Origin: a virus
Lineage: Duplodnaviria; Heunggongvirae; Uroviricota; Caudoviricetes
Strand: one strand, 5' to 3'
Virus record (IMG/VR): IMGVR_UViG_3300047483_000428
DNA: 64,000 bases
Positions 3,392 through 64,000 of this stretch are shown piece after piece. Position numbers and translations under genes: made by a program. Below the pieces are notes generated by a model. The model worked only from the letters and a program-made list of their open reading frames with translations. It was not told the DNA's origin and did no database searches. Positions within the stretch are counted from its first letter, which is position 1. Every line of letters begins with the position of its first letter.

Positions 3392-4522
3392 TTACCTGTA
3401 TTTTTTGAATATTGGGTGGACTTCCAATAGCTTCGTGTTACGTGAAGTATCAAGTCTGTCGTTGATGGAAAAGAATTTAGAAAAATCAGCTTCTTCATTT
3501 GTAATAGATTGTAATATACTCAACAGTCTATTTACAGTATCATAGTCATTTTGATTTAGGCAATTTACTTCTTTTATTTTATCTATTTGAGTAGCCATTT
3601 CATAGTTACTCCATTGATCTATTTTTAGATATTCTGGAGAATGTATTTTATCAAAGTATAAAAACCATTTAGGGAACTGAGAAGAAAAGTAACTATATAT
3701 ATCAAATACTCTATAAACGTTCAACACATTTATCACGGTGTGTATAGCAAATTTCATATTATCAAAACAGAGTTCCTCGTATTTTTTCATATTTGAAATT
3801 ACGACATCGAAGTTGCCATCAGTTCTGAAATAATTATAATGCTCAGTTATATCATCGACTGATACAATTAGATGGATTTGTTTTGCTTTTCGCAGTGAAT
3901 TCAAAATACTATCGGTCGGTAATACAGACCCATTTGTTACTATCTCAATAGAAATGTTCTGTATTAGATTATTATCATCCAGCATATGAATTAGCTTACC
4001 AAATGATTTAGACAATATTGGCTCACCGCCTAATATCTTTATTTTTTCAATGTTTTTTAGAGAATGAAAATCAATTGATGATATATCTGGTTCTTGTAGT
4101 ATTCGGTCTGGAACCCAATTTCCAAGCATAATGTCATCTTGTTTCCACCGACTACTACTTGCCGTTTTACAATGTCTACATTTCATATTACAATGATTAC
4201 TGAACGCAATTTCAATACTTGTTATGTCAGAGTTTGGGTCACCAGTTATTTTTTGGTGCTGTAACATGTAATTATGAAACTGACGCATACTGGTTGCGCC
4301 ACTATCTTCTTCGTTCCAGCAATGGTAGCAACCTTCATCACGAATGCCGTTTTTTAAGTTTTCTCTAACTGAAACCAAGTATGGGTCATTGAATGTTTCT
4401 GTAATAGTTTTACCATCCAGAAACAGTCTTTTATCGTGAAGTGGAGAATACCTACAGCAAGGATTCACCTCACCCATAGTATTGATAGCAAGGTGTGTTT
4501 CACTCAGCAAGCATCGTGTCAT
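3392..4522 (-). CDS. radical SAM domain protein
   Basis: CxxxCxxC cluster motif SNHCNMKCRHC, preceded by an extra Cys-rich N-terminal region (NPCCRY, GCYHCW). Length is 376 aa. Confidence 0.65.
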   Translation of the reverse strand: MTRCLLSETHLAINTMGEVNPCCRYSPLHDKRLFLDGKTITETFNDPYLVSVRENLKNGIRDEGCYHCWNEEDSGATSMRQFHNYMLQHQKITGDPNSDITSIEIAFSNHCNMKCRHCKTASSSRWKQDDIMLGNWVPDRILQEPDISSIDFHSLKNIEKIKILGGEPILSKSFGKLIHMLDDNNLIQNISIEIVTNGSVLPTDSILNSLRKAKQIHLIVSVDDITEHYNYFRTDGNFDVVISNMKKYEELCFDNMKFAIHTVINVLNVYRVFDIYSYFSSQFPKWFLYFDKIHSPEYLKIDQWSNYEMATQIDKIKEVNCLNQNDYDTVNRLLSILQSITNEEADFSKFFSINDRLDTSRNTKLLEVHPIFKKYR

Positions 4523-5343
4523 TTGTTTCCATAAATTTTAGAAAGTGTAGATGGTCCTGCGACTCCATCCGCTGCCAACCCATTGTTGAGTTGAAATCTC
4601 ATCACTGCTTCTTTTGTTGCAGGACCAAAGTTTCCGTCTGCAACTAGTCCAAGTGCTTGCTGTAGCTTTACAACATCATTTCCAGTTGAACCAAGTTTTA
4701 GTGTTGTAGATTTTGATTCTGAAATTTTCCCACCCAAAACAGAAAGTGCTTTGTTGTAATATTTCATTCTGTCTTCAAGACCGTTGAACCCGCCATTGAT
4801 ACGTCTGGTAAGAGCTTTCATGTCTTGTGCATCTGCCAGTGCGTTCAGATTATTTTTTGCCCAAAACCAGCAAGCAGATTCAATCGCACCTTCTTTGGTT
4901 TCAAGATATGAGATTGCTTGGTCTATAGTCATGTTCACAGACTTGGCAAAAGCTGTGTAATTATCTTTTCCGGTGAGTTGTATCAACCCACGACCACGAT
5001 GTTTCCAGCCATCATTTGGCTCAGTGTTACCCATGCGACCAGCATATACTATGTTCGCAATCTTCTCTGGTTGACGAGCATATGCGTTTGCATCACGACC
5101 AGCATTGACAAAATACTTTGGAAATACTCTGTTCAAACCGTCTGCGGAATAGATCAAATTTTCTTGAACGACCGTGAATTGACCGCTCTCATGAGCACAC
5201 TGTGCGAGGAAAGCAGCAACTCTAAGTGGCGAAGTAATATCGTATTTTGGTAATATTTTAGATAGTGGGTCATACCAAGAACCAGCATCTTTATTGTTTG
5301 AAAGTATAGAACACAATTGTTCTTTTGTTATAGGCAATGACAT
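4519..5343 (-). CDS. endolysin: GH19 (chitinase-like) lysozyme domain plus C-terminal peptidoglycan-binding repeats
   Basis: GH19 catalytic signature AAFLAQCAHESG. The C-terminus has tandem PG_binding_1-like repeats (LQQALGLVADGNFGPATKEAV and NNGLAADGVAGPSTL). Confidence 0.8.
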   Translation of the reverse strand: MSLPITKEQLCSILSNNKDAGSWYDPLSKILPKYDITSPLRVAAFLAQCAHESGQFTVVQENLIYSADGLNRVFPKYFVNAGRDANAYARQPEKIANIVYAGRMGNTEPNDGWKHRGRGLIQLTGKDNYTAFAKSVNMTIDQAISYLETKEGAIESACWFWAKNNLNALADAQDMKALTRRINGGFNGLEDRMKYYNKALSVLGGKISESKSTTLKLGSTGNDVVKLQQALGLVADGNFGPATKEAVMRFQLNNGLAADGVAGPSTLSKIYGNK

Positions 5344-26722: not shown

Positions 26723-27973
26723 TCAAGCGGCGGCAACCGCTTGAGTCCGAGCACGTTTCATGCCTTCTTTGATTTTTTCAACTTTCTTTTCACCATTCGG
26801 GAAAACATCGTTGAACTTCACACTCTTGAACGCTTCCCACTTGGTCAGCAGAACGTCCAGTTGGTCAACAGAGTTGTTTTCACTACCCAGACGACCACGC
26901 TCATCGCACATACCAACCCGATGCAGAACATTCACAGTTTCAGGATCATTCAGCGAACCCATTTCATCAAACATCTTGACAAAAGTTTTCGGGTTCAGAT
27001 CATCCAGTTTGTGCATATTCATGTGAAACCGAGTAGCTTTCATCGCACGGTCACGCATCTTAGCAGGAACAGTCAGACGGTCAGCAAAGGCTTCCACAAC
27101 GGGAACACCCTTCACATCATGCCCGAAGTGCTTAGGAAAGTCTTCTTTCCGAGTCAGACCTTTACCAAAGTCATGAACCAGTGCAGCAAACCGAGTTTCC
27201 AGATCAAACCCAAACTTGGCAGCTTGAGTCAGAACCAGCATGGTATGCTCAAAGGCATTACCTTCGGGGTGCCAACGGCGACTTTCCATCGCAGAACACA
27301 GTGCATACACTTCGGGAAACAGAACATGCAGAGCATCACATTCCAGCAGCGTATCAAAGAACAGGCGAGGATGGGGTTCCATCAGAGCACGGCTCAGTTC
27401 TTTCCACACCCGTTCAGCAGTCAGTTCGTTCAGAACGCCCTTCTTGGCCATCGTATGAACCAGTTCACGAGTTTCCTTGGCAACAGTCCATTCCGCACCA
27501 AAACGAGCACGGAACCGAGCCAGACGCAGAACCCGAACAGGGTCTTCAACGAAAGCATTAGAAGTATGACGCAGAACTTTGGCATTCAGATCATCTTGAC
27601 CACCAAAGGGGTCAAACAGAGCAAAACTACCTTCATCGCCTTCAACAAAGAACTCAGTGTCTTCCATGCGTTGCAGAGACATGCTGTTGATGGTCAGGTC
27701 ACGTCGACCCAGGTCTTCTTCCAGCGTCACATCAGTGCCGAACTCAGAAGTGAAACCCAGATACCCAGTGCCAGTCTTTTTTTCACGACGAGCCAGAGCA
27801 AATTCTTCACCAGTTTCGGGGTGCAGAAACACAGGAAAATCAGCGCCAACTTTTTCAAAGCCAGCAGCCAGCATTTCTTCGACCGTGGAACCGACCACGA
27901 CAAAATCTTTATCTTTCGGCTCCATGCCCATCAGCATATCGCGAACAGCACCGCCGACCAGAAATGTTTGCAT
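26723..27973 (-). CDS. cca: CCA-adding tRNA nucleotidyltransferase (class II polymerase-beta head plus HD domain)
   Basis: N-terminal GGAVRD...DxD head motif (LVGGAVRDMLMG..KDKDFVV) and HD-domain signature ALVHDFGKG. Start placed at the internal MQTFLV (GAAAGGAA RBS), because a promoter motif and terminator lie inside the longer ORF-track frame. Confidence 0.8.
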   Translation of the reverse strand: MQTFLVGGAVRDMLMGMEPKDKDFVVVGSTVEEMLAAGFEKVGADFPVFLHPETGEEFALARREKKTGTGYLGFTSEFGTDVTLEEDLGRRDLTINSMSLQRMEDTEFFVEGDEGSFALFDPFGGQDDLNAKVLRHTSNAFVEDPVRVLRLARFRARFGAEWTVAKETRELVHTMAKKGVLNELTAERVWKELSRALMEPHPRLFFDTLLECDALHVLFPEVYALCSAMESRRWHPEGNAFEHTMLVLTQAAKFGFDLETRFAALVHDFGKGLTRKEDFPKHFGHDVKGVPVVEAFADRLTVPAKMRDRAMKATRFHMNMHKLDDLNPKTFVKMFDEMGSLNDPETVNVLHRVGMCDERGRLGSENNSVDQLDVLLTKWEAFKSVKFNDVFPNGEKKVEKIKEGMKRARTQAVAAA

Positions 27974-28002
27974 TGGTGATTCCTTTCTCATTACTGTTAC
28001 AC

Positions 28003-28029
28003 CATACAGTATGATTCTTACCTTGTCAA
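28003..28029 (-). promoter_or_regulatory. promoter-like motif copy upstream of the CCA-adding enzyme gene
   Basis: Plus strand reads catacagtatgattcttaccttgtcaa. Confidence 0.45.
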
Positions 28030-28060
28030 ATAAAAAAGAGGGTTTCCCCTCTTTATTTTT
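28030..28060. terminator. bidirectional rho-independent terminator
   Basis: Hairpin AAGAGGGTTTCCCCTCTT flanked by an A-run and a T-run. Confidence 0.6.
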
Positions 28061-28253
28061 GTTCCACAACTCGTATTTCTTGTTCGGCAATCATATACCA
28101 ATCAGGTGCGATTGCTTCTGGTGGCTCATTGAATGAGTTGATATGGTCACGATACTTGATGGCTTCTTCTATCGTATCAAACAAAGCATATTCTCGTTTT
28201 TGTCCCCAACCACGTTCTGATTCAATAGTGCAGACTTCGTATTTTACTTTCAT
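28053..28253 (-). CDS. hypothetical protein
   Basis: 66 aa; variant promoter motif at 28278..28310. Confidence 0.4.
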   Translation of the reverse strand: MKVKYEVCTIESERGWGQKREYALFDTIEEAIKYRDHINSFNEPPEAIAPDWYMIAEQEIRVVEQK

Positions 28254-32092: not shown

Positions 32093-33265
32093 TTACATTT
32101 TTGTTGTTGTGGACTCATATGTCCGATTATACTGATTATTTACCCTAATAAATGTGGTGCATTTACTGAGTTGTTTCAAGGTAGGTGCGCCAACATAAGT
32201 GCAAGTTGAACGTATTCCGCCAAGAATAGTTTGAATGGTATTGGATACATTTCCACGATACGGAACCAATACTTCTCTGCCTTCACTTGCCCGATAATCT
32301 TTGAGGCCACCAAAGTGTTTAGTGTTAGCAGCATCGCTACTCATACCATAGAACTGAACAAATTTCTTTTCTGCGATGATGGGTTGAAAACTTTCAAAAG
32401 TTTCTGGTGTGCCAGTGTGTTTGTATTCACCTGTGTTATACCATTTACTTATCACCTCGCCACCACCTTCGTCATGGCCAGCCAACATGCCACCTAGCAT
32501 TACAAAGTCAGCACCCCCTGCAAAAGCCTTGGCAACGTCCCCAGAACAAGAACAGCCCCCGTCAGCAATAATATGTCCACCAAGACCATGAGCCGCATCC
32601 GCGCACTCAATGATAGCCGAGAGTTGGGGATAACCGACACCAGTTTGTATCCGAGTGGTGCAGACGCTACCAGGACCAATCCCAACTTTAACAATGTCTG
32701 CTCCATTTAGAATCAATTCCTGTGTTTGGTCTGCGGTAACAACGTTTCCTGCGATGATAACGATGTTTGGATATATTTTGCGAATGTTTTTTACATGTTC
32801 AACAAAATGCTGACTGTATCCATTTGCAACATCAATACAAAGATATTTTAGATTATCACCAACTCTGGCATAAACCTGAACAAACTTGTCATAGTCTGCA
32901 TTACTGGTGCCAATACTCATAGCTACATGTTGAGTTCTACGTTCAACGTTTTGTGAAAAGAACTCAACGAGTTCATCCATCGAATATGTTTTTACCAAGC
33001 AAGTAAAAATGCTTTGGCTGGATAGAACGTCTGCCATTTCAAATGTTCCAACACCATCCATGTTTGCAGCCATGATGGGAACCCCCTTGTATTGAGAGTA
33101 GTTACGATCAAACACTTCATTCATGGTTTCGTTTGGACCAGAAACATAGTTTCTAAATGTATATGACCGTTCCAGACTTACATCTGAACGGCTTTTGAGT
33201 GTGCTTCGTTTTGGGCGAATTAGAACATCGCTGTAATCCAGCAATACTTCATTTTCTATGCGCAT
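32093..33265 (-). CDS. guaC: GMP reductase
   Basis: Near-colinear with bacterial GuaC: [105 protein letters not shown]. Confidence 0.85.
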
Positions 33266-48204: not shown

Positions 48205-48552
48205 TCAAGAACCTTTTTTCTTATCCCAATAATCTTTTGGCATATTTGTCCATTGCGTTGACCAGTAGAACACAATGAAATACAGGTTCAGTTGCGCGTG
48301 TGGGCAGTCATACCAAAACTTGTGAAGTCCAAAGTTTTCAAAACCCCAAATCTTACGCATCCAAGAGTCGTCTTTGAACTCTCGCATTGCTTGACGCATT
48401 TCTTTGTCAACCAGTCCAACCTTGAAATAGCACCCATACCAATCGGACCCAAGAGTCTTTTCGGTTTGATACCACTCAACGCCGAGTTCTCCCTTCCAAC
48501 AAAGTTTGAACTTCCACGGGTATTGTTTTACTTTTTCCATATCAGTCCCCAC
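48205..48552 (-). CDS. hypothetical Trp-rich protein
   Basis: 115 aa. Confidence 0.4.
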   Translation of the reverse strand: MGTDMEKVKQYPWKFKLCWKGELGVEWYQTEKTLGSDWYGCYFKVGLVDKEMRQAMREFKDDSWMRKIWGFENFGLHKFWYDCPHAQLNLYFIVFYWSTQWTNMPKDYWDKKKGS

Positions 48553-49552
48553 CTTTCAGAAGGAACTGATTGCTGATTGTCTTGAAGCTGAAACTTGGGT
48601 CTTCGTTGCACTTCCACACAAGACCTTCACGAACCTTATGGGCGATACTTGGACCTTCGGCAATAGCAAGACCTTGTTCAACCGAAGCAGGGGATTTCCA
48701 GTCATTACCAAGAACAGGAGCATGGTCAAAGTATTTTGCATTGCAGACCATGCGCCGAGTCTTTGGTTCTAGGTATTCATGCTTCTGAATGTCGAAGACG
48801 TCGAACACGAAGAACTTGTGTTCAGTGAACCCTTCGCGGTTTCCTTGAATACCTGGGCCCATGACTTCACCTTGAACAGCGTAACCGTTCGGAATGCGAT
48901 CACCGATCTTGAGAGCCATTGCAACAAGGGTGTTGTCTCGGTTCTCGTCATTGATCTTGAGTTCAAGGTTCCTACTGCAAACGCGAACTTCGCCTTCCCA
49001 ACGGAAGATAGTGCAACTGGTTCCGTCCAGTTTCATAGTTACTTCGTAAGTAACATCACCCTTATCCTGAATCTCTTGGAAACAGTTTTGGATACGTTCT
49101 TGGTCAGTTTTAGGAATCAGGCTGGTAGGAAACAGACCGCGAACTTGACCAGCAAGTTGAGCAGGGATTTCTGGTTCCCACTTTTGAATACCAAGGATTT
49201 CGGTTACATCAACTCCTTCTTCTGGAAGAGTAAAGAACAGTTTTCCTTTCACACCTTCCGCATCAAGTTTCAAAAGAAGACCTTGTGAAACTTGCCCACG
49301 CAGTTTGACAGTGCGAAGCCGTTCACCTTTCACCCCATTGTATTCACGAGGTTCTTGTCCTTTTGACAGGAACGCAGCAAGTTCAGTTGGCACCCAAGAG
49401 TCGATTTCAAGGTAAACGGCAAGGTCACCAACTTGAAACTCGTCTTTCTTGACCACAACTTTCCAGCCATCAACTGTGGCCACAACAATAGCATCAGCAC
49501 CTTCAATGGGCTGAATGTCGGCAATCCGACGAATAGAGGCTAGTTTACGCAT
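48542..49552 (-). CDS. ATP-dependent RNA ligase (nucleotidyltransferase superfamily)
   Basis: Motif I KxDG as KLDGTSCTIF. Start placed at MRKLASIRR (ATGA-coupled to the upstream ORF). Confidence 0.5.
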   Translation of the reverse strand: MRKLASIRRIADIQPIEGADAIVVATVDGWKVVVKKDEFQVGDLAVYLEIDSWVPTELAAFLSKGQEPREYNGVKGERLRTVKLRGQVSQGLLLKLDAEGVKGKLFFTLPEEGVDVTEILGIQKWEPEIPAQLAGQVRGLFPTSLIPKTDQERIQNCFQEIQDKGDVTYEVTMKLDGTSCTIFRWEGEVRVCSRNLELKINDENRDNTLVAMALKIGDRIPNGYAVQGEVMGPGIQGNREGFTEHKFFVFDVFDIQKHEYLEPKTRRMVCNAKYFDHAPVLGNDWKSPASVEQGLAIAEGPSIAHKVREGLVWKCNEDPSFSFKTISNQFLLKGGD

Positions 49553-49911
49553 TATTTTTTCTCCCGAATAAAGGCAGTGAGTGGAGTTCCGTATCCACAT
49601 TGTAAGTCCGAATGAAGATTTCCACCGTTGATGGAGTCTGTCAGATAGTCCATTTCAGTATAGCCATACCGATCAATGCCATTGCCAATCCCAACGTATT
49701 CACCGTCAGCATCAAAGGCAGAGTATCCGTAACTGTCAAAACCTTCACTGTCGTAGTCGCCAAACATGGTTTTTTCATCATATTCGATTCCATCTTCATA
49801 GACTTCTTGATTCCATTCTGCGGGGACTTCGCCATAGCAGTTGTATTTGAACATTTCCCATCCGCTTTCATTGGCGTGAGGGCAGAGAGGTGAATATTTT
49901 CCAGTGCTCAT
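49552..49911 (-). CDS. hypothetical acidic protein
   Basis: 119 aa. Confidence 0.4.
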   Translation of the reverse strand: MSTGKYSPLCPHANESGWEMFKYNCYGEVPAEWNQEVYEDGIEYDEKTMFGDYDSEGFDSYGYSAFDADGEYVGIGNGIDRYGYTEMDYLTDSINGGNLHSDLQCGYGTPLTAFIREKK

Positions 49912-51853: not shown

Positions 51854-52255
51854 CTACCGATGCAGAGAGAACTGTTTCATATATTCGGCTTCTTCTTCGG
51901 TGTAAACAAACACCCAAGCACAAGTAACTTCACAGCTTACAAAAACATCACCATAAAAGTTACGCCAAGGGTAGGTAGGATCAACCGTCATCCCACTGTT
52001 TGGAATGACACTGGTGATTTGATTGATGACATCCAGAGGTTCATGCAGAACCAGTGTGACGCCAAAAGACCGATCTTCTTTCCATTGTGCAACCGCATTG
52101 AATAGTGCAGCAGTTTTGAAATCCAAGGGCGCAAGTTTCGACGATTCCACAAATTCGTCAAAGTCAGATTGCGCGTGTGCAGCTTGCGCCATAGCCTTGC
52201 CAGGATTCATGTCCTGAATGTCTTTGCGCATGATAATATACAGTTTCGGTTCCAT
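51854..52255 (-). CDS. hypothetical protein
   Basis: 133 aa. Confidence 0.45.
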   Translation of the reverse strand: MEPKLYIIMRKDIQDMNPGKAMAQAAHAQSDFDEFVESSKLAPLDFKTAALFNAVAQWKEDRSFGVTLVLHEPLDVINQITSVIPNSGMTVDPTYPWRNFYGDVFVSCEVTCAWVFVYTEEEAEYMKQFSLHR

Positions 52256-53466: not shown

Positions 53467-54531
53467 TTATGGTGTGGGGTTACTTGGTGGTGTCGCATTA
53501 GCCGAGTTGGCGTCAGCTTCGTCCAACACTCTGTTGAATTCTCGTAAACGCTTTATAACAGACTGGAAATCAACAATCGTTGTCCAACGGTCAATGAAGT
53601 ATGTAAGCGCACTTTCAACTCGTCCAAACGCATTTAGAACTTGTATGAGAACACCAAATGTAACCAACTGTGCGAAATAGCTTGGTGCCAGCACAACAAG
53701 AGCCACGTTTCCTGCTATCATACCAAATGCGGTTTGCCATACACCAAATCCCATATACCAGTTGAACAAACGATAATAGTTACGTTTGATTGAAGCAAAC
53801 ATAGGGAATAGGTCTGCGGTCAAACGATGGTTGAAATCATCTTCGGAATGAACTAACTTCTTTCTAAACTGTGCTTCTACCACTTGGTTGTTATATTCTA
53901 ACCCAGGAAGTTTTATACCCAACAAGAATGACAGCAATGTTCCGCCCAAGGACATGGTAAGAGCAACCCACACCAAGAACCCAGGAATTATTTGGTCGCC
54001 CCACACTGGCAGTCCTTCGCTCAGATTCCACAAAACTGGCAAGAAAGCTGCAAGAACAAAAATCTTATTCACAAATCCAGCAAATAGACCTTGTAGTGTT
54101 TTTCCAAAGACCATCAAGTCTTCTTGTATACGCTGTGAGCCACCTTCAATCTTTGCCGTTGATTTTTCCCAACGCTTTAGATAATACATCGTGTTTGCTT
54201 CTCTCCATGCAAACGTGTAACGCTGTGTTTGCCACGTTGAATAAACTGCGATTGGAGTGTATAGCACAATGATTTCCAAGAAACTGGGAACAATCATTTC
54301 GGAGTCGATTCTTAGCATTAGAAAGTCAAAAAATCTTCCTGTATCCCAACCCCATAACAATTCCCAAAAGGTTTCCTCTTGTAGCGTTTGTATGGCATCA
54401 TAGAACTCTCTGTTCCACGCATTATAATATACGAGAATTTCAACGCTATACCAACCAACGAATAGCAACCATGCTAACATTAGCCAAGAATATAACGCGG
54501 TTTCTCTGTTCCAAAAGAAACTTTTTAGCAT
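53467..54531 (-). CDS. polytopic inner-membrane protein (at least 6 TM), transporter-like
   Basis: 354 aa with multiple hydrophobic helices and a C-terminal Pro/Ser/Asn-rich tail; first gene of the membrane module. Confidence 0.5.
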   Translation of the reverse strand: MLKSFFWNRETALYSWLMLAWLLFVGWYSVEILVYYNAWNREFYDAIQTLQEETFWELLWGWDTGRFFDFLMLRIDSEMIVPSFLEIIVLYTPIAVYSTWQTQRYTFAWREANTMYYLKRWEKSTAKIEGGSQRIQEDLMVFGKTLQGLFAGFVNKIFVLAAFLPVLWNLSEGLPVWGDQIIPGFLVWVALTMSLGGTLLSFLLGIKLPGLEYNNQVVEAQFRKKLVHSEDDFNHRLTADLFPMFASIKRNYYRLFNWYMGFGVWQTAFGMIAGNVALVVLAPSYFAQLVTFGVLIQVLNAFGRVESALTYFIDRWTTIVDFQSVIKRLREFNRVLDEADANSANATPPSNPTP

Positions 54532-54542
54532 TTTTTATCTCC

Positions 54543-55406
54543 CTACTCTAATCCACTTATTGGGTTAGCAGCAGTAAAACCCCAAAAGTTTCTATAATTT
54601 GTTGCGATGTTAAGTAATCCTGGCTTAACTTTAAAGTCATCTGGCTTTAGCCAATACATATTCGAATTTGGTATTTGAATGAATAGTTGTCTTACGTCTG
54701 CATCTGTGACGCCCAAATCTTCAAGTAACGATAACAAGCTACTGGCAACTCTCAACGTTGATGATTCGACTTGCGACTGGTTCATTCCTCCACCAGCGCC
54801 TTCTGGGGTTGCAGGAGAATGTATACCAAACCATACATCGCCAATCAGATAGCGAACATCACCAGCCAAGAATAGCAGACCACAAGCACTGGCGCATATT
54901 GAGTTTCCCTCCATACCAGAGTCTTTTGGTGCTATCAATCCTGGTTGGTATATATTTTTCCCCATGTCATTATAAACTGGGGTTGCACGGACAACCGTTA
55001 CTACGTCCCGTATTTTGAAATGTGCAGCCAGACATGAACCATCTGCAAGACTTCCGCCAGGGCTTTCTAAAATAACAGTGAAATGGTCTGGTAACAACGG
55101 GACGATTTTTTGACAATCGCCTTCTTTTATGCCACCAGTTAATGTATACAAGTTGTCATCAATCTGTTTGAACTCTAACCCAACTTCTTCTACCGCAGTA
55201 ACTTCTTTTGAGGGATTGTTTAGTTCAGTGTATAACTCGTTGTATGCGTTATATGACATTCTTATTTGATTTCCAGCTAACAACATTATGATGATTATTA
55301 GCGAGAGCATTAATGGCTGTGAAATCAGCCTACGTATCGCTCTATATATCCACAATCCCTCTATTGATTCAAATATAAAGAGTCTAACCTTCTTCCATAT
55401 ATTCAT
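54543..55406 (-). CDS. membrane-anchored ClpP/crotonase-fold serine protease (NfeD/SppA S49-like)
   Basis: N-terminal TM (LMLSLIIIIMLLAG) then ILESPGGSLADGSCLAAHF...GNSICASACGLLFLAGD, the SPGG and Ser-x-x-x-Cys/Ala pattern of S49/NfeD. Confidence 0.55.
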   Translation of the reverse strand: MNIWKKVRLFIFESIEGLWIYRAIRRLISQPLMLSLIIIIMLLAGNQIRMSYNAYNELYTELNNPSKEVTAVEEVGLEFKQIDDNLYTLTGGIKEGDCQKIVPLLPDHFTVILESPGGSLADGSCLAAHFKIRDVVTVVRATPVYNDMGKNIYQPGLIAPKDSGMEGNSICASACGLLFLAGDVRYLIGDVWFGIHSPATPEGAGGGMNQSQVESSTLRVASSLLSLLEDLGVTDADVRQLFIQIPNSNMYWLKPDDFKVKPGLLNIATNYRNFWGFTAANPISGLE

Positions 55407-55439: not shown

Positions 55440-55700
55440 TTACTGTGCGGGTGTGTCTGGTTGTTGTTTTGATTGTTCCGCAACTGCGGCATCATATTCT
55501 TGACGTGTCATACATTGTGACCTTGAATAGACAGTCCATTCTATGTCAATTTGCGTCTTTTGATTTTCTAGCATTTGGGCATGTGCTTTGCAATCTTCCA
55601 AAGACGTATACGGTATGTGTTGAATAATCGGTGCTCCGAGTTGCACATTGAACACCGATACTATAAAGTAAACCACTACTAGGACTGCATTGTATTCCAT
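55440..55700 (-). CDS. small single-pass membrane protein
   Basis: 86 aa with an N-terminal TM. Confidence 0.4.
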   Translation of the reverse strand: MEYNAVLVVVYFIVSVFNVQLGAPIIQHIPYTSLEDCKAHAQMLENQKTQIDIEWTVYSRSQCMTRQEYDAAVAEQSKQQPDTPAQ

Positions 55701-55701
55701 A

Positions 55702-56187
55702 TCAATTTCCTTTTAAATTGTCTGGATCAGTAACAACAAAGTCATAGGTGTTATATTCTCCACCCTGCGTTTGCCCTTTGCCTACTCCAGTTCCATCTTG
55801 GTCTGCACCTTCTTGACCAATTTTTTGGCCTTTGCCTTCTTCTTGTGCTTTTGCTGCTTCATCCATCGCCTTTTTGTTTTGCTCAGTATTTGGAATACTA
55901 TACAGTCTAGGCTTTTCAGTTTCAGTCGGCCATGCCCAAACATAAATCACATCACCATCAACAATGTGATTTATATAAAAACTGTCATTTGGAATTGGAG
56001 TAACAACGGGAAATCCTAAAAGGTTCTGTAATGTGAGATAACTTGTAATGACACTAACGAATGTTACTGGTATGATTATAAAAGTAATCAGGAAATTTTT
56101 ATAGTTTCTTATCGCTACCCACAATACAACAATTGATAGGAACATAAGGGATATTAAAATAGGTAACAATTCGCTGCTATATATCAT
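55702..56187 (-). CDS. membrane protein with Gly/Gln-rich C-terminal tail
   Basis: Two to three N-terminal TMs; C-terminal QEEGKGQKIGQEGADQDGTGVGKGQTQGG. Confidence 0.45.
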   Translation of the reverse strand: MIYSSELLPILISLMFLSIVVLWVAIRNYKNFLITFIIIPVTFVSVITSYLTLQNLLGFPVVTPIPNDSFYINHIVDGDVIYVWAWPTETEKPRLYSIPNTEQNKKAMDEAAKAQEEGKGQKIGQEGADQDGTGVGKGQTQGGEYNTYDFVVTDPDNLKGN

Positions 56188-56193
56188 TTTATT

Positions 56194-56907
56194 TTACTCT
56201 ACATTTATGAAACTTGACCCTGCGGTATATTTTTTATTAGATTTTTGCAATCCACCACTGACAAACGTGTCAGATATAAGTGAACCACTAATTCTGGAAT
56301 TGGATTTTATTACTATATTTTCAGTAGGAAATCTAAAATTGCTTGCCTTTCCATTTTCATCTAAATCGAATTGTAGGATTGGAACGATTTGGCCTTTATC
56401 TTTATATCTGTGTTCTGAAGTATATACTTCTTGATACGGATTCACACGTATCATTTTAAAAGACAATGGAGAATATGGGTCTGGATTATTTTTATTTTCA
56501 TACTTATTGAAAACGTGGGCCATAACTGTATAAGTTCCTGGGATAATTCCACGCATTGTAGTAACTTCCCGATTGGTTTTTACAATAGTCTCTGTCCCAT
56601 CTGGGGATTCATACGTATCGTTACTTTTACCAAGATCGTCTCTTTCAAGATTGAGTAAACCGCCATCTTTACTCAAGAAACTTACGGTTATTCCATTTGG
56701 GTCTCTTACCCAAATATCAATATCGTCATACGATTCTGAGTCCCATTCGATGGCGAATAGGTATTCAGCTTTTGATGGTATATCATTTTTTTTCGCTTGC
56801 GGATTGATTAAAATAAATGCAACCGTGAACAAAAATACAAATCCCACCAACAAGTTGAATAACAAATCATTAAATGCTATGCCACTTCCGTAGTGTGATC
56901 TTTTCAT
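56194..56907 (-). CDS. MotB/ExbD/TolR-like stator subunit (single TM with conserved Asp, periplasmic domain of unknown fold)
   Basis: N-terminal GIAFNDLLFNLLVGFVFLFTVAFIL parallels the ExbD/TolR/MotB TM (FIDVMLVLLIIF / ADLMTLLMAFF), with Asp at the cytoplasmic end of the helix. Sits immediately downstream of the MotA-like gene. Confidence 0.5.
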   Translation of the reverse strand: MKRSHYGSGIAFNDLLFNLLVGFVFLFTVAFILINPQAKKNDIPSKAEYLFAIEWDSESYDDIDIWVRDPNGITVSFLSKDGGLLNLERDDLGKSNDTYESPDGTETIVKTNREVTTMRGIIPGTYTVMAHVFNKYENKNNPDPYSPLSFKMIRVNPYQEVYTSEHRYKDKGQIVPILQFDLDENGKASNFRFPTENIVIKSNSRISGSLISDTFVSGGLQKSNKKYTAGSSFINVE

Positions 56908-56908
56908 A

Positions 56909-57382
56909 TCATTGGTTGCCTGACTCTAAATTGACAAGTTGTATCTTTAATACTTGACTACATACCAACCCGACAAGAGTAGTATATAGTGCAGTGCTCA
57001 TACCAAGCGCCATTGCGACAAGTGCAGATTTTAGTGTTTCTGGATTAGAAGCATCTATTTCAGCAAACGAACCGCCTAGCATCATAATAAAACCAGCAAC
57101 GGTTCCAATCATACCAAGTGTCAACATAGTTTCACTTATGAACCATGCAATTTCGGTTCTTTCTTCTACTATTTTGTTTTTGGAATTTTCGTAAGACAAT
57201 TTTCCAACAAACAAACTTGCAATTATATACAACGCTATAATCAAGACGCTTATTTTAGTTGTATCCTTGGTGTAAATTTCCCAAGTCCATCCAAAGATGT
57301 ATGCAATGTATCCCATAACTAATGATAAACAAAAAACTAGCCACCATTTTAGAACTTTAGACATTAATACTTCTCCACACAT
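56909..57382 (-). CDS. MotA/TolQ/ExbB-family proton-channel protein (short form, 4 TM)
   Basis: C-terminal TMs carry the family signature TMLTLGMIGTVAGFIMMLGG...ALVAMALGMSTALYTTLVGLVCS (cf. MotA GMIGTV.GL...LG.GIAVAL.TT.YG). Confidence 0.6.
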   Translation of the reverse strand: MCGEVLMSKVLKWWLVFCLSLVMGYIAYIFGWTWEIYTKDTTKISVLIIALYIIASLFVGKLSYENSKNKIVEERTEIAWFISETMLTLGMIGTVAGFIMMLGGSFAEIDASNPETLKSALVAMALGMSTALYTTLVGLVCSQVLKIQLVNLESGNQ

Positions 57383-57525
57383 TCACACAAACTAATTCAT
57401 TTATTTATTTATCTATTTTGTCTGTATATAACGAATAATCAAAATCCACTTTTGTGGTATTACTGCCACAATAAAAAAAGAACAGTGAGTAATCACTGTT
57501 CTTTTATTTTGATTTATTTTTACTG

Positions 57526-58161
57526 TTAGTATGTTTCTACAACCACGTCAGCAATACCATGTTGGACTGCTTCTTCTGGTGTTAGCCAGTGGTCTGTTTT
57601 TGGCGCAAGCAAGTGCTTACGAATATACTTTTCCGTTTTGCCAGTGCATTTGATGTAGTGTTCAAGCAACTTGTCGTTTGTCCAATCCATGTGTTTGCGG
57701 CTTTCAACCATATCATGGTATTGGCCACGAGTGCCACCACTAAATTCATGGCTCATAACAGCGGTGTTTTGTGTCAGGTAACGGTGTCCCTTTTCTCCTG
57801 ACATCATGAGCATCACACCACAACTTGCAATGCTTCCCATTCCATAGGTATATACTGGAATACGACTTTGTTTGATAATGTCAATCAGATGCATACAACT
57901 GTCAACGTAACCACCAGGGCTGTTGATATATAGATGAATCACTTCTGGTGCTCTATCGGCTGGCATCAAGTTGTATTCCATAATCATTTTTACTAGTGGC
58001 ATACAATTTTCTTGATTGAACTCTTTGTCCATAAACAACACACCATTGTCGCGCAAGTATTCACCTAGCTGTTTTGGTGGACTTGGTGGCGCTGGCGGTG
58101 GTGGTGGAGGGGTTTGTGGCGCTGGTGTTTCTTTTGGAACGGGGATGACTTTGTTTTTCAT
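57526..58161 (-). CDS. ClpP-like serine protease with Pro-rich N-terminal linker
   Basis: Contains YINSPGGYVDSCMHLIDII...GMGSIASCGVMLMMSG...MSHEFSGG, ClpP-like Ser/His regions. The N-terminus is PAPQTPPPPPPAPPSPP. Confidence 0.7.
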   Translation of the reverse strand: MKNKVIPVPKETPAPQTPPPPPPAPPSPPKQLGEYLRDNGVLFMDKEFNQENCMPLVKMIMEYNLMPADRAPEVIHLYINSPGGYVDSCMHLIDIIKQSRIPVYTYGMGSIASCGVMLMMSGEKGHRYLTQNTAVMSHEFSGGTRGQYHDMVESRKHMDWTNDKLLEHYIKCTGKTEKYIRKHLLAPKTDHWLTPEEAVQHGIADVVVETY

Positions 58162-58914: not shown

Positions 58915-60312
58915 TTACTGCTTTACAGGGTTTCCGATAGTAGGATCAACACTCAGTTGCTTTGCAGAGTTTAGCATCATCAGTTGCATAAACTGGTCTA
59001 CGGTTCCAAGTGCATTTCCCGCAGTCCCATCGCTACCACCACCAGCAATCACAGTGGAAGGAACATTGATTTTAGATGCGGCGTCTGCCCATACACGTTG
59101 TGCTTCAACCCAAGCATCAAGTTTCTGTTGTAGCGCACCGTCAGCTTCAAGGATAGCTTGTTTGGCGTAGGCTTCTGCATCGGCAGCAACAGTTACAGAT
59201 TGTGCGTCAACCTTTGCACGTTCCAGATTGATTTCCGAGGTTTCTTGTGCAATTCGGGCTTCCTCGCGGATACGTTCAGCTTCAATTAGAGCAAGTTTTT
59301 TCGTGGTTTCGGCGTTTGTAGTCTTTTCAATCTGTTCCACTTTTGCTTCTGCTTGACGCTTGGCAATGTCAGTTTCACCTTGTTGAATAGCCAGCAGACG
59401 CTGTTCTTCTTGCTCAAGGCGTTGTTCACGAGCAACTACACGACGAGACGCAGCTTTCTTACGTTCACCAATTTGACGCTCATATTCATCATCTGGGTCA
59501 ATGTTTTCAAGAATTGCAGATGATACAACAACACCGATTTCCGCAAAGTCATGTGGGGTTCGGATGTCATTGCCGCTTGCGTCTGTCACTTTTTCCATCA
59601 TAACACGACGAACTTCTGTGTCGCCAACTTCTGAAGTGTCGGCAGCAACATCGCTACTTGATGGAGCGGCACGACTAGGAATTACGCCACCCGCTTGGTT
59701 GAAAGACACTTGACGAACTTGCGCACGACCCTTTTCAACAGTATCTTTGAACTCGCTCTTGAATTGGTCCCGCTTACCACCAGAGTAGTATTCTTCCATG
59801 GTAAACATGTTGGAAACCGAGTCAAGCGATGCAGTAACGGCAGGTTTCAGAGTAGTGCTAATCAGACGCTCAGGACTACGGAAGGTTCGTGCCATCGTCA
59901 AGAATTGTTCTTGATCTTGTGGGATTGCAAAACGAGTGGTCTGAGTAACATCACCTGTCCAGTTGTCTGCTAGGCGAACACGATATGGACCCGTGACAGA
60001 ACTGCCATCCGCTTCAATATCAATCGTGTTTGCGACTGTAATGAAGTGAGGCCATGCGGTAGAAGTTCCCCAACCGACAAAAAACCAACCTGTTTCGCAA
60101 ACTGCGGTTTCTGTTCCAAAAATACTCCGAGTGTGTTGGCAGTATCCAGCGTCATTGTAACTTACGGCCCCAAGACCGATAATTGCAACACCAAAAACGG
60201 CGACCGCAGATGAAACGATTGTTTTTACTTTTCGTAGTTCAGGCACCAGAGGCACAGCTTTGATTGCGATTGCCGCAATAATAAAGACGATGCCTAGAAT
60301 AAGTCCAGTCAT
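58915..60312 (-). CDS. SPFH/Band-7 (flotillin/YqiK-like) membrane protein
   Basis: N-terminal TM, an SPFH domain, then a long Ala/Glu-rich coiled coil (EAKVEQIEKT...ERAKVDAQSVTVAADAEAYAKQAILEADGALQQKL) typical of flotillin/HflK/C. Confidence 0.75.
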   Translation of the reverse strand: MTGLILGIVFIIAAIAIKAVPLVPELRKVKTIVSSAVAVFGVAIIGLGAVSYNDAGYCQHTRSIFGTETAVCETGWFFVGWGTSTAWPHFITVANTIDIEADGSSVTGPYRVRLADNWTGDVTQTTRFAIPQDQEQFLTMARTFRSPERLISTTLKPAVTASLDSVSNMFTMEEYYSGGKRDQFKSEFKDTVEKGRAQVRQVSFNQAGGVIPSRAAPSSSDVAADTSEVGDTEVRRVMMEKVTDASGNDIRTPHDFAEIGVVVSSAILENIDPDDEYERQIGERKKAASRRVVAREQRLEQEEQRLLAIQQGETDIAKRQAEAKVEQIEKTTNAETTKKLALIEAERIREEARIAQETSEINLERAKVDAQSVTVAADAEAYAKQAILEADGALQQKLDAWVEAQRVWADAASKINVPSTVIAGGGSDGTAGNALGTVDQFMQLMMLNSAKQLSVDPTIGNPVKQ

Positions 60313-60757: not shown

Positions 60758-61096
60758 TTACGCAAAGTTCACCGAAACTCCACATCCGCAGCCAGATTGT
60801 GCATTTGGATTGAAAAGTTCAATTTTACTTCCAGTGATATCGCTGACATAATCAACAGTCGTTCCGATAAGATACATTAGGCTGTGACTGTCAACATACA
60901 GAGTGAAGTTATCGTATTCTTGAACCTCATCGCCAAACATATGGTCCTTGACTTCATCGAATATTTCCCAATGGTATTGGAAACCCGCGCATCCACCACC
61001 GATGATGCCAAACTTCACCAGTTTTCCAGATGCGATATTAGTAAAGTGATTGATTGCTTTGTCGGTTAGTGTCACAACACTCATTTTTTTCTCCAT
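60758..61096 (-). CDS. HesB/IscA-family iron-sulfur cluster insertion protein
   Basis: C-terminal CGCGVSVNFA matches the conserved Cys-Gly-Cys of A-type carriers; an N-terminal Cys lies in GGGCAGFQY. Confidence 0.65.
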   Translation of the reverse strand: MEKKMSVVTLTDKAINHFTNIASGKLVKFGIIGGGCAGFQYHWEIFDEVKDHMFGDEVQEYDNFTLYVDSHSLMYLIGTTVDYVSDITGSKIELFNPNAQSGCGCGVSVNFA

Positions 61097-61578
61097 TTTG
61101 TGATAGATAGTCCGCTATCTATTATTTCGTTATTGTGAATATAGAATTGGCTTGTTATTTTTTCTTTTGGTAAAAACACGTCACAATCATATATTCCACT
61201 AATATTACTTATCCACAATTCATCTATAATATCAAGGCAGTCTTCAATAAGCGAAGCGCCGCCGATGACCCATGTAATGTATTCCGAGTATCTAGTTTCT
61301 ATGATTTCCTTGATGATTCTAGAAGGATTGCCACTATATACTCCATGGGGTGCGTTCTTCCATTCATTTGGATTCATGGAAGACGATATTACAAAGTTCA
61401 GACGGTTGGATAGTGGTTTATATGGAAGGCTATCCCATGTCTTTCTTCCCATTACCACCGAATGACCATTGGTGCAATCTTTGAACCATTTCAAGTCGGC
61501 AGAGTTACGGGGCCATGGCAAGTCGCCGTTCTTTCCTATGCCCCAATTGTCGTCCATTGCAAATATTGCGTTTATCAT
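61081..61578 (-). CDS. frd: dihydrofolate reductase
   Basis: N-terminal MINAIFAMDDNWGIGKNGDLPWP with the DHFR signature, and LNFVISSS downstream; 165 aa. Confidence 0.85.
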   Translation of the reverse strand: MINAIFAMDDNWGIGKNGDLPWPRNSADLKWFKDCTNGHSVVMGRKTWDSLPYKPLSNRLNFVISSSMNPNEWKNAPHGVYSGNPSRIIKEIIETRYSEYITWVIGGASLIEDCLDIIDELWISNISGIYDCDVFLPKEKITSQFYIHNNEIIDSGLSITKWRKK

Positions 61579-62331: not shown

Positions 62332-64000
62332 TTAGAACCTTTGTGTAAGGGTAAAGCCAATCTGTGGCGCGGTTTCGCCAGCAATACCCATGTAATTTTC
62401 GCGAACTTCTGCAAACATAGAAACGTTAGTCATTGGTGCTACGTCTACATTGTAAAACACACCAAGATTTACTTCACGACTATTATTCGCAAGAGATTCA
62501 GTTGCAGAAGCAGATGATACCACACCTTCAGCACTTACGGAAGATGCATATTCCATTGACACTTCCCCAGATTGAATGGAAACTGGAAGTGCCGCCACAA
62601 CTCCAAAGTGTCCGTTTTTCGTGTTGAATTTTGCACCAATGCTTGCTGTGTTGCTGATTATAGTTCCAGCACTTTTCATCATAGAGTTATCTCCAACATT
62701 CAGGTCAGTCGCACCAAATCCAATACTCCCAAACAGTGAGCCGTTTCCAGTTTGAATTTCTGGATTGAAACTTACATAAGTTGTAGTCGCACCAGTTACA
62801 TTCATGATTGGACTGTTCGCCGTGTTTCCAAGGAATGAACCATCTTCTTTCATCATCCCGAATGTCATAAATCCTGCGTTATATGATAGACCATAGTTTG
62901 TTCCATCAGTGTTTGTAGATACAGCAACATTGCCGATATTGATATTTAGTCCTTTTGTATAACCCATGTAATTGTCTGCATTTGAGTTATACGATGCTGC
63001 CAGAACTGGGTTCACCATGCGAGTATCAGTAGCAACGTTCAGTTTGTTGCCATCAACATAAAAGTTTCGATCATAGTCATCAACGACCATCATACTGGAC
63101 AACGAAGCCATATTCATCCCTGCAACAGAAAGTTGCCCATCAAGCGAAGCGGTTGCCCCATCAATCCGACCAGTCGTAGGAATACCAATTGCACCCTGTG
63201 GAGACGTTGCGTTATCAAGGTCCATGACGCCTTGACCGTGAATATTTACATTATAGCCAGCAAACGATTTGTCCGCAGTTTCCATGAGTAGTTTTACAAT
63301 ATTATCGCCTGTCATGTATGGCCACATTTGATGAACTAGTGCTACGCCACCAGAAATAGCGGGAGCAGCCATAGATGTTCCACTCAGAGCACGATAGTCC
63401 CCACCATTATCGGTTGAAGTGACCCAAGAACCAGGAGCCATCAAATAATAGTCGCTAACACGATAGGTATTGTTACACTGATTAGTTACGGAATTGTAAT
63501 CATAGCACATTGTTCCAGCACGGTTTGAGTAAGAAGCAATATTATTTGTTCCAAGGTCAAACGAACCAGCAATGATTACCCGACCGTCAAGTGCAAGGTT
63601 GCCATTTTCATCAGTGATAGTGGCATAGTGAGCAGGAAACGCTGGAAATGCCAACCCTTGGTTACCAGCAGCCACAACAAGAACAGTGTCATTTCCACTC
63701 ATCGCACTGATAACAGGAGCAGTGAAGTTGTTGCTATCTAGCACTTGGTTGTAACCAAGAGATTGGTATGGGCTGTAGGTGCTATAGTAAAAACCATCGC
63801 CAATAGACACTACACTATTACGGTATGTAGAATCCATACTCATTTCGGCACTTACGTTTACTACATCTGCGCCATTTGATACTGCCCATGCGATACCATT
63901 ACCAAGTTGGTCAAGTTCAATATATCCGCTATCATGACCAATTTTGCCAATCAACAGGTCAGCGTCAGGCGCAACACCAGTCATGCCAACGCCATCTAAT
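62332..64000 (-). CDS. S8 subtilisin-family serine protease with beta-barrel-like C-terminal domain (partial; N-terminus beyond window end)
   Basis: Asn oxyanion VVAAGNQG and catalytic Ser in LSGTSMAAPAISGGVALV. The C-terminal 250 aa are Gly/Ser/Asn/Thr-rich with alternating hydrophobics ending ...IGFTLTQRF (aromatic terminus, autotransporter/OMP-like). Confidence 0.7.
   Translation of the reverse strand, partial: LDGVGMTGVAPDADLLIGKIGHDSGYIELDQLGNGIAWAVSNGADVVNVSAEMSMDSTYRNSVVSIGDGFYYSTYSPYQSLGYNQVLDSNNFTAPVISAMSGNDTVLVVAAGNQGLAFPAFPAHYATITDENGNLALDGRVIIAGSFDLGTNNIASYSNRAGTMCYDYNSVTNQCNNTYRVSDYYLMAPGSWVTSTDNGGDYRALSGTSMAAPAISGGVALVHQMWPYMTGDNIVKLLMETADKSFAGYNVNIHGQGVMDLDNATSPQGAIGIPTTGRIDGATASLDGQLSVAGMNMASLSSMMVVDDYDRNFYVDGNKLNVATDTRMVNPVLAASYNSNADNYMGYTKGLNINIGNVAVSTNTDGTNYGLSYNAGFMTFGMMKEDGSFLGNTANSPIMNVTGATTTYVSFNPEIQTGNGSLFGSIGFGATDLNVGDNSMMKSAGTIISNTASIGAKFNTKNGHFGVVAALPVSIQSGEVSMEYASSVSAEGVVSSASATESLANNSREVNLGVFYNVDVAPMTNVSMFAEVRENYMGIAGETAPQIGFTLTQRF

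Follow-up and report, generated by a model that had tools for sequence, protein, structure and literature searches.

The membrane-protein locus

The DNA analysed here, called the window throughout, is the whole stretch of 64,000 nucleotides (nt) taken from IMG/VR virus record IMGVR_UViG_3300047483_000428 (Caudoviricetes). On its minus strand it carries three genes, here named A, B and C, which encode a small MotA/TolQ/ExbB-family protein, a single-pass membrane protein and a protein with a hairpin of two transmembrane (TM) helices (Table 1). The original prediction had described a MotA-like and a MotB-like gene within positions 56194-57382 and had proposed that their products form a stator. 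Both open reading frames (ORFs) are indeed present there on the minus strand, as are all the long ORFs around them.

The genes follow one another closely. One nucleotide separates the A stop codon (TGA) from the B start codon (ATG at 56907), 6 nt separate the B stop codon (TAA) from the C start codon (ATG at 56187), and gene D starts (ATG at 55700) 1 nt past the C stop codon (TGA). A, B and C are translationally packed, and this tight operon opens with A and B. The hairpin upstream of A is the top terminator-like site within 53.2-58.3 kb, reading 57505-57476, and likely marks the upstream boundary of the A-B-C transcription unit. An AT-rich spacer lies between this hairpin and the ribosome-binding site of A. 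Matches to sigma-70-like promoters were no commoner than in shuffled sequence (19 observed versus 16.4), and therefore no promoter is named.

Table 1. Features of the module and the genes on either side of it in the window
Feature	Coordinates	Strand	Basis and remarks
ClpP-like protease gene	57526..58161	-	Hairpin sits between this gene and A
Terminator-like hairpin	57476..57505	-	13 pairs and a T run, after the ClpP-like gene; sequence
GGAGAA ribosome-binding site	57371..57376	-	6 nt before ATG at 57364; read from sequence
Gene A	56909..57364	-	151 aa, MotA/TolQ/ExbB family, four hydrophobic segments; ORF, Pfam, profiles
Pfam MotA_ExbB match within A	56951..57169	-	TM3-TM4 hairpin; GxxGT(88)VxG and A(125)LYTT(129)xxG invariant
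Gene B	56194..56907	-	237 aa, single-pass membrane protein, presumed axle ("B") subunit
B TM helix, residues 9-34	56806..56883	-	AlphaFold2; Asp14 codon at 56866-56868
B beta-sandwich, residues 47-192	56332..56769	-	TerD-like by predicted fold; AlphaFold2, structural matches
Gene C	55702..56187	-	161 aa, two-TM hairpin and small C-terminal domain
Gene D	55440..55700	-	86 aa, membrane-anchored; some phage clades only
Gene E	54543..55406	-	287 aa, N-terminal hydrophobic segment, without family match
SbmA/BacA-like inner-membrane transporter gene	53467..54531	-	Pfam E = 7e-78

A, B and C are inherited together

All ORFs of 126 loci were clustered. These loci comprised 80 IMG/VR viral contigs, 37 species-representative genome loci, 3 cultured Rhizobium phages and metagenome contigs of 150-470 kb. 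B occurred in all 126, C in 123 of them and A in 121, with the order A-B-C and a single strand throughout. A and B adjoin in about 120 of the 126 independent loci, the exceptions being mostly loci that end at a contig edge, and their pairing is far beyond chance. Because C accompanies A and B nearly everywhere, the unit consists of three genes and not two.

Gene A is a minimal member of the MotA/ExbB family

The ORF at 56909-57382 does encode the 157 amino acids (aa) originally reported, but translation most likely begins at the ATG at 57364, which gives a protein of 151 aa. This start is preferred because GGAGAA lies 6 nt upstream of it, because 120 homologues are about 150 aa long, and because an independent gene call on another contig also gives 151 aa. 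A matches Pfam family PF01618 (MotA_ExbB) with 30.0 bits (E = 4.9e-7), above the gathering cut-off of 22.9 bits, and the same family is matched by its relatives in Rhizobium phages and bacteria and by 119 of the 120 database relatives listed. In profile alignments made with hhalign, A aligned with residues 135-185 of E. coli TolQ (E = 2.3e-4) and 142-188 of ExbB (E = 1.9e-4) with the GTV and AxxxT elements in register, such that GxxGTVxG of A fell on G-L-F-G-T-V-W-G and ALYTTxxG on AL(I/L)ATAIG. We take the threonines of these two motifs to be the two channel-lining threonines of the family. A search with the A profile against all PDB sequences gave eight matches at E<=1, seven of which were A-subunits of 5:2 complexes: MotA 8gqy (the best, E = 4e-4), four TolQ, ExbB and a second MotA. 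The eighth was a spurious match to an engineered cytochrome. An hhalign comparison of A with E. coli MotA was set aside, as the wrong helix had been aligned.

Conservation was computed on distinct sequences (220 for A, 241 for B and 99 diverse members for C). In A, conservation is 100% at G84, G87, T88, G91, A125, T129, G132 and Q142, and 99% at D34. Together, the Pfam score, the profile alignments and these invariant motifs bear out the earlier identification of A as a minimal MotA/ExbB-family protein. Hydropathy delimits four segments (residues 4-27, 34-59, 79-101 and 115-134). Net charge is negative in the TM1-TM2 and TM3-TM4 loops and most Lys and Arg residues lie in the TM2-TM3 loop, and A is therefore assigned a MotA-like topology with four TM helices and a cytoplasmic N-terminus (N-in). 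T88 and T129 sit in the cytoplasmic halves of TM3 and TM4, respectively.

The family libraries scanned were Pfam (2025 copy), PHROGs v4, NCBIfam 20 and PADLOC 2. The best named-family matches of A were the TM cores of ZorA (NCBIfam E = 1.6e-7; PADLOC E = 1.1e-6), covering A residues 33-144, i.e., TM2 to TM4. The NCBIfam ZorA score, 30.6 bits, is far under the cut-off of 500. We found 1,161 relatives of A at 90% clustering, and identity between phage groups is only 23-25%.

Gene B joins an invariant membrane aspartate to a TerD-like beta-sandwich

An AlphaFold2 model of B, built with 53 relatives and, as with all structure models used here, as a monomer, has a predicted local distance difference test score of 84.4 and a predicted template modelling score of 0.73. 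In this model the TM helix covers residues 9-34 and is followed, after a linker of some 12 residues, by an all-beta domain (residues 47-192). Asp14, in the helix at 5-6 residues from its N-terminal end, is 100% conserved in the 241 relatives, and the TM aspartate that had been noted in B is thus genuine. The B-subunit of a 5:2 complex is expected to be encoded next to A and to have a single N-terminal TM helix with an essential acidic residue; B agrees with this in gene position and helix, Asp14 being the presumed essential residue. The N-terminal "plug" that had also been attributed to B is not evident, since the beta domain follows the TM helix after only about 12 residues. For the periplasmic part, roughly 200 aa had been given; this length is reached only with the poorly conserved tail (residues 200-237), while the conserved domain spans about 150 aa.

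B had further been described as having a beta-rich domain in place of an OmpA-like peptidoglycan-binding domain, and this description stands. The two strings quoted for the domain, DIWVRDPNGITVSF and GTYTVMAHVF, occur in the B translation, AlphaFold2 predicts a beta-sandwich, Pfam reports no OmpA match, and the OmpA-type pattern NxxLSxxRA (N..LS..RA) is absent from 241 of 241 sequences. Among the best 60 structural matches of B there was no OmpA-like, MotB-C, ExbD, TolR or GldM chain, and the best were Ca2+-binding proteins (TerD; 2lge, calcium-bound form). Foldseek against BFVD returned only weak matches with low template modelling scores. The structural comparison that had been suggested as a check thus agrees with a beta-rich, non-OmpA domain and departs from ExbD and TolR: the modelled domain has the beta-sandwich fold of TerD, whereas neither the ExbD Pfam profile nor the alpha/beta architecture of an ExbD/TolR periplasmic domain is found in B.

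Within the domain, W55, D62, D64, D90, G93 and E114 are invariant and D91 and D97 nearly so. hhalign registers the EWD, DxD and DPNG motifs and the acidic loop of B on GWD, DLD, ANGK and GDNxTGEGDGDDE of TerD, an alignment that is not significant, and Pfam finds no match to the TerD family (PF02342) in B. We describe the domain as TerD-like by predicted fold, with homology unproven. From its acidic cluster, it probably binds metal (Ca2+).

Sequence searches placed B in no established family. It has no match in Pfam, PHROGs, NCBIfam or PADLOC, ZorB included. A Pfam scan of 53 full-length B members and ten N-terminal segments of 50 aa found no MotB_plug, ExbD, OmpA or TerD, with scattered chance matches only, and the MotB_plug profile was unmatched in these sets at E<=10. 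PDB sequence profile searches with B gave neither a stator nor a TerD chain, and hhalign of B profiles against single E. coli MotB, TolR and ExbD sequences gave nothing significant, although IAFNDLLF of B was set over IAYADFMT of MotB with Asp on Asp (E = 0.35, weak).

Two weak resemblances of the B domain were noted in passing. A "Virion structural protein" of 864 aa (PDB 11pb_C / 36za) gave the same weak match at residues ~247-314 with both B-family profiles (E = 0.3-0.5). Its segment YRDDVDIYVKGPNGK...LTHRDYG resembles the best-conserved part of B, DDVDLWVxDPxG...LDRDDLG; the match is recurrent and not significant. With B residues 34-138, tblastn gave weak matches (E ~6e-3 to 8e-3) in Rhizobium phage 16-3 p040 (NC_011103 23441-23707) and Sinorhizobium phage NV1.1.1. 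These temperate rhizobial phage sequences may be distant copies of the beta-sandwich domain alone.

Gene C is a third membrane protein

C has two hydrophobic helices. The loop between them is net positive (+1.2), while the N-terminus and the region after TM2 are net negative, from which a periplasmic location is predicted for the C-terminal domain and the tail. Conservation across the diverse members is limited to G58, Y59, P93 and G118. A C-terminal GQTxGGEYxxYDF is invariant within the phage clade of the window, and longer relatives gain a Pro-rich stretch. C has no match in Pfam, PHROGs, NCBIfam or PADLOC and does not show the arrangement of TonB and TolA, an N-terminal TM helix with SxxxH motif, an extended spacer and a target-binding C-terminal domain. 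On sequence, then, A is a member of PF01618, and B and C belong to no described family of the libraries scanned.

Distribution in phages and bacteria

Among the 90% clusters, 204 are relatives of B, and a Pfam domain was found in none of the 120 relatives listed. A B profile search recovered 1,902 clusters at 50% identity (E<=1e-3), the best 150 of which are mostly ~200-250 aa long, the shorter ones among them being probable truncations. When the region was compared by megablast with 50,697 phage records there were zero matches, and tblastn with A against phage records likewise gave none. By tblastn, B alone retrieves cultured phages, all of them phages of Rhizobium or Sinorhizobium. Cultured carriers of the module are Rhizobium phages RHph_N34, P10VF, RL38J1 and RHph_N3_13; in Rhizobium phages the module lies among replication/middle genes and away from the lysis genes, and in RHph_N34 directly upstream of a late sigma factor gene.

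The module is not confined to phages and is chromosomal in some marine Gammaproteobacteria. The genome scan relied on peptide patterns tuned to this marine clade, and the taxonomic range given here is that of the scan. Most of the 37 genome loci come from uncultured marine Gammaproteobacteria of low GC content (27-33%), on contigs of up to 820 kb. From their GC content and habitat, these bacteria may be SAR86-like. The bacterial module lies between fumC and acnA, with prfB, lysS, purB, a DUF489 gene and mnmA around it. About 25 genomes share this synteny, the context being chromosomal and vertically inherited.

Bacterial and phage forms of A differ in size. In 32 of 32 bacterial loci, the cytoplasmic TM2-TM3 loop of A is longer by about 50 residues and its C-terminus is extended as well (e.g., L035 5268-5972 and L025 5274-6017, with 30 other genome loci), and the median loop length is 72 residues in bacteria versus 19 in phages. 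The short loop is found in all 64 distinct viral copies, in 119 close metagenomic relatives and in the window. To our knowledge, phage A, with 151 aa and a TM2-TM3 loop of ~19 residues, is smaller than any characterised A subunit. The unusual smallness remarked on originally thus holds for phage A; because bacterial copies have the long loop and viral copies the short one, minimal size is a trait of the phage lineage. We propose that the phages hold a trimmed copy of a cellular module.

Two metagenome-assembled loci with short loops (L010 and L013) are regarded as phage DNA in bacterial bins, since their neighbours are shared with viral contigs only. In two SAR116 single-cell genomes (L011 and L012, 5547-7094), a phage-type, short-loop A-B-C lies on contigs of 79-84 kb among genes that match neither the viral nor the gammaproteobacterial loci. 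Their module could belong to a prophage, to an infecting phage or to a third context.

Comparison with known systems

The closest parallel in organisation is with Ton and Tol. The order of A, B and a third membrane protein is that of tolQ-tolR-tolA, and A aligns with the TM2-TM3 hairpin of TolQ and ExbB over both Thr motifs. Like B, ExbD and TolR cross the membrane once, carry an Asp close to the N-terminal end of that helix and lack an OmpA domain, and the output is presumably periplasmic in both cases. The parts themselves differ. ExbB and TolQ are proteins of 230-244 aa with three TM helices and a large cytoplasmic domain, whereas A has four TM helices in 151 aa and essentially no such domain. 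The soluble domain of ExbD and TolR is alpha/beta, in contrast to the predicted TerD-like beta-sandwich of B, which no ExbD Pfam profile matches. C differs from TonB and TolA in its two TM helices and lack of SxxxH, and has no detectable similarity to either.

With MotA and PomA, A shares the four-TM, N-in arrangement, and its top solved-structure match (8gqy) is a MotA. B, read as xIAFxDLLF, has its Asp in register with that of MotB (KIAYADFMT), although not significantly. Unlike MotA/MotB, the module has no FliG-contacting cytoplasmic domain, plug, linker or OmpA-like domain, and it is found in phages and housekeeping loci with no flagellar genes nearby. A resembles the TM core of ZorA but, at 151 aa in total, is without the long C-terminal tail, and B neither matches ZorB nor has a peptidoglycan-binding domain. 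No ZorC/D/E-type gene appeared among the recurrent neighbours, which were not scanned against PADLOC. Zorya is an anti-phage motor, whereas the present module is phage-borne. A flagellar stator, a Zorya component and a lysis cassette were all considered and rejected.

TerD proteins are soluble, cytoplasmic and act with TerB/TerC and others, whereas B anchors its TerD-like domain through a TM helix, is paired with a MotA-like protein and probably exposes the domain to the periplasm. GldL-GldM and PorL-PorM form a 5:2 motor in which the A subunit is small and the periplasmic part of B is beta-rich and not OmpA-like, features that the present module would have in common with them. GldL, however, has two TM helices and a cytoplasmic domain, and GldM is long and spans the periplasm, unlike A and B.

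In the literature full text searched, the module is described nowhere. A 2025 survey of MotAB relatives (PMC12505986) reports that non-flagellar B subunits bear assorted compact domains, and mentions neither phage forms nor a TerD-like B subunit.

A proposed envelope energiser and its alternatives

With moderate confidence, we favour the reading that A-B-C is a conserved operon module forming an ion-driven complex of the "5:2" type (MotAB/ExbBD/TolQR) with a Ton/Tol-like three-part logic. The analysis establishes the family of A, the invariant residues, the fold class of B, the strict linkage of the three genes and their distribution, whereas the stoichiometry (5:2), the way B is oriented, the flow of ions, its coupling to C and the target are inferred. 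The complex would sit in the inner membrane of an infected Gram-negative host. A, with its four TM helices and hardly any cytoplasmic mass, would form the ring, and B the central axle, with Asp14 as the putative ion-binding site opposite Thr88 and Thr129 of A in the cytoplasmic half of the membrane. Given this position of the two threonines, Asp14 can face them only if the N-terminus of B is inside and its C-terminus outside (N-in/C-out). This is the orientation of MotB, ExbD and TolR, the one we presume for B, and the one that its flank charges weakly favour. The B domain would then lie just above the membrane on the periplasmic side, where MotB has its peptidoglycan anchor and ExbD and TolR have an alpha/beta domain, both of which it would replace. 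The TM hairpin of C may ride on the ring, with its periplasmic domain and tail acting like TonB or TolA.

A has no cytoplasmic lever and the B linker is too short to reach the wall, and therefore work is most likely passed to C. With the MotA-to-rotor and the MotB-to-wall routes both closed, the remaining precedent is the Ton/Tol logic, in which the TM segment of a third membrane protein docks on the ring and work is conveyed to the periplasm by that protein. The position of C and its predicted topology suit it to such a role. It is a reasonable inference, in line with the original proposal, that the module energises something other than a wall anchor, like ExbD and TolR. The phage would probably use it in early or middle infection, to control the envelope or a process dependent on the proton motive force (PMF).

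Several observations count against this energiser model. B resembles TerD in structure but not significantly in sequence: three B profiles (2.7 to 5.1 effective sequences), when aligned by hhalign with TerD, TerE and TerZ, gave E = 0.2-0.3, and therefore no sequence homology is claimed. Canonical TerD proteins are, moreover, cytoplasmic. In profile searches the TM segment of B has no significant sequence similarity to MotB, ExbD, TolR or ZorB, and its axle role depends on context and one invariant Asp. Both flanks of the B helix are positive (+2.1 versus +1.4), and charge therefore does not settle a periplasmic site for the beta-sandwich. There is no obvious lever, given the lack of a cytoplasmic domain and the 12-residue linker, and no target, outer-membrane partner or rotor was identified.

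The main rival is a Ca2+-gated conductance. In this alternative, which we judge unlikely, the module has no mechanical output and works as a gated ion channel or as a modulator of the PMF, its TerD-like domain serving as a Ca2+-sensitive lid, and it tunes or collapses the membrane potential for superinfection exclusion, host shut-off or timing. The short loop of phage A, which leaves it without a cytoplasmic domain, fits a channel well, as does the placement of the B domain some 12 residues past the TM helix, where it must cap the channel mouth. The invariance of the acidic cluster and the Ca2+-binding nature of the best structural matches are also as a calcium-sensitive lid would have them. 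A channel, however, leaves the strictly co-inherited C without a role, the housekeeping context of the chromosomal orthologues argues for a constructive function and not a toxic leak, and, as far as is known, all characterised members of the A family couple ion flow to work.

It is improbable that phage A (and B) acts as a decoy that mixes into host TolQR, ExbBD, MotAB or ZorAB and inactivates them, thereby blunting Zorya or the Tol/Ton-dependent entry of rival phages and colicins. The top NCBIfam and PADLOC matches of A are ZorA cores, and loss of the cytoplasmic loop in the phage form is what a possible dominant-negative might show, but the ZorA scores are far under their cut-offs. A decoy would have no need of a full co-evolving set of A, B and C in which the putative catalytic residues are all invariant and which stays together despite the low identity of A between phage groups. 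The cellular orthologues, too, form a self-contained module.

An accessory to lysis or envelope disruption at the end of infection, such as a holin, pinholin or spanin-like set, is very improbable. A, B and C are all small membrane proteins in a tight operon, as such a set would be, but the endolysin gene of the window (4519-5343) lies ~50 kb from the module, the Rhizobium phage copies have DNA-metabolism genes around them and precede the late sigma factor gene, bacterial copies lie between fumC and acnA, and the family signature of A is absent from holins. Finally, the modest Pfam score (30 bits) and the lack of a family match for B might suggest that there is no real unit, the MotA_ExbB match being chance hydrophobic similarity and B an unrelated membrane protein; the chance of this is negligible, and the reading is effectively refuted by a score above the gathering cut-off that recurs independently in Rhizobium phage and bacterial homologues and in nearly all relatives listed, by the 5:2 A-subunits among the PDB matches, by the invariant motif residues and by linkage across 126 loci.

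Neighbouring genes and the surrounding window

Beyond A-B-C, no neighbour is universal. The recurrent phage neighbours are an IscA-like Fe-S protein (22 loci, 16 dereplicated groups), a ClpP-like protease (21 loci, 14 groups), a family-B DNA polymerase (18 loci, 13 groups) and an SbmA/BacA-like transporter that may lie on either side of the module (13 loci, 9 groups). Protein E occurs in ~10 loci, always with the SbmA-like gene. These two genes are kept with the module despite reordering: in L013 the genes run E-SbmA-A-B-C-ClpP, and the window, L048 and L050 have ClpP-A-B-C-D-E-SbmA. In that subset of loci, the recurrence hints that E/SbmA and the module are functionally linked. E has no sequence relative in Pfam, NCBIfam, PHROG or PDB. 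Its strings SPGG and CASACG (GxSxCG-like) may resemble those of serine proteases of the ClpP/SppA type.

A broader scenario, which we regard as speculative and quite unlikely, would have the module be a miniaturised viral Ton-like energiser, made of a bare ring with four TM helices per subunit, an axle that bears the Asp and is capped by a Ca2+-binding TerD-like domain, and C as a new TonB-like adaptor. In some phages it would be joined with the SbmA/BacA-like importer, the membrane-anchored E and ClpP-like proteases in a route for the import and degradation of peptides or other scarce nutrients in nutrient-poor hosts, the core being a third, so far unrecognised envelope energiser beside Ton and Tol in abundant low-GC marine Gammaproteobacteria.

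The ClpP-like protease of the window has a weak NfeD1b_N match. Its gene lies ~750 bp downstream of that for an SPFH/Band-7 protein of 465 aa (58915-60312, minus strand; phrog_11908, E = 4e-101), with three small ORFs between the two. The pairing recalls bacterial SPFH-NfeD operons.

The window as a whole is phage-like, with PHROG matches to virion-protein, endolysin, methyltransferase and radical-SAM families and many auxiliary genes, and it has no close relative among deposited phages. Nearly all long ORFs in 1-64000 share the minus strand, and every 2-kb bin has a negative GC skew. The window fits a part of a long co-oriented gene block of a jumbo phage, with relatives on contigs of 150-470 kb. 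Auxiliary genes on the minus strand (26723-28090, 32093-33265, 48542-49600, 51854-52255, 60758-61096, 61081-61578 and 62332-63984) have as products a CCA-adding/poly(A) polymerase with an HD domain, an IMPDH/GMP reductase, an RNA ligase, a PTH2-like peptidyl-tRNA hydrolase, an IscA-like Fe-S protein, a dihydrofolate reductase and a subtilase (S8).

Conclusions

If the complex assembles as predicted, it would show how little protein suffices to turn ion flow into work and would be an attractive target for cryo-electron microscopy. The B domain would be a fourth kind of periplasmic output domain besides the OmpA-like, ExbD/TolR-like and GldM-like ones, and would tie the poorly understood TerD fold to membrane energetics. 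Since cultured Rhizobium phages carry the module, it is genetically testable now. As the module is abundant while B and C are unannotated, many marine phage and bacterial genomes would carry an envelope machine that has gone unrecognised.

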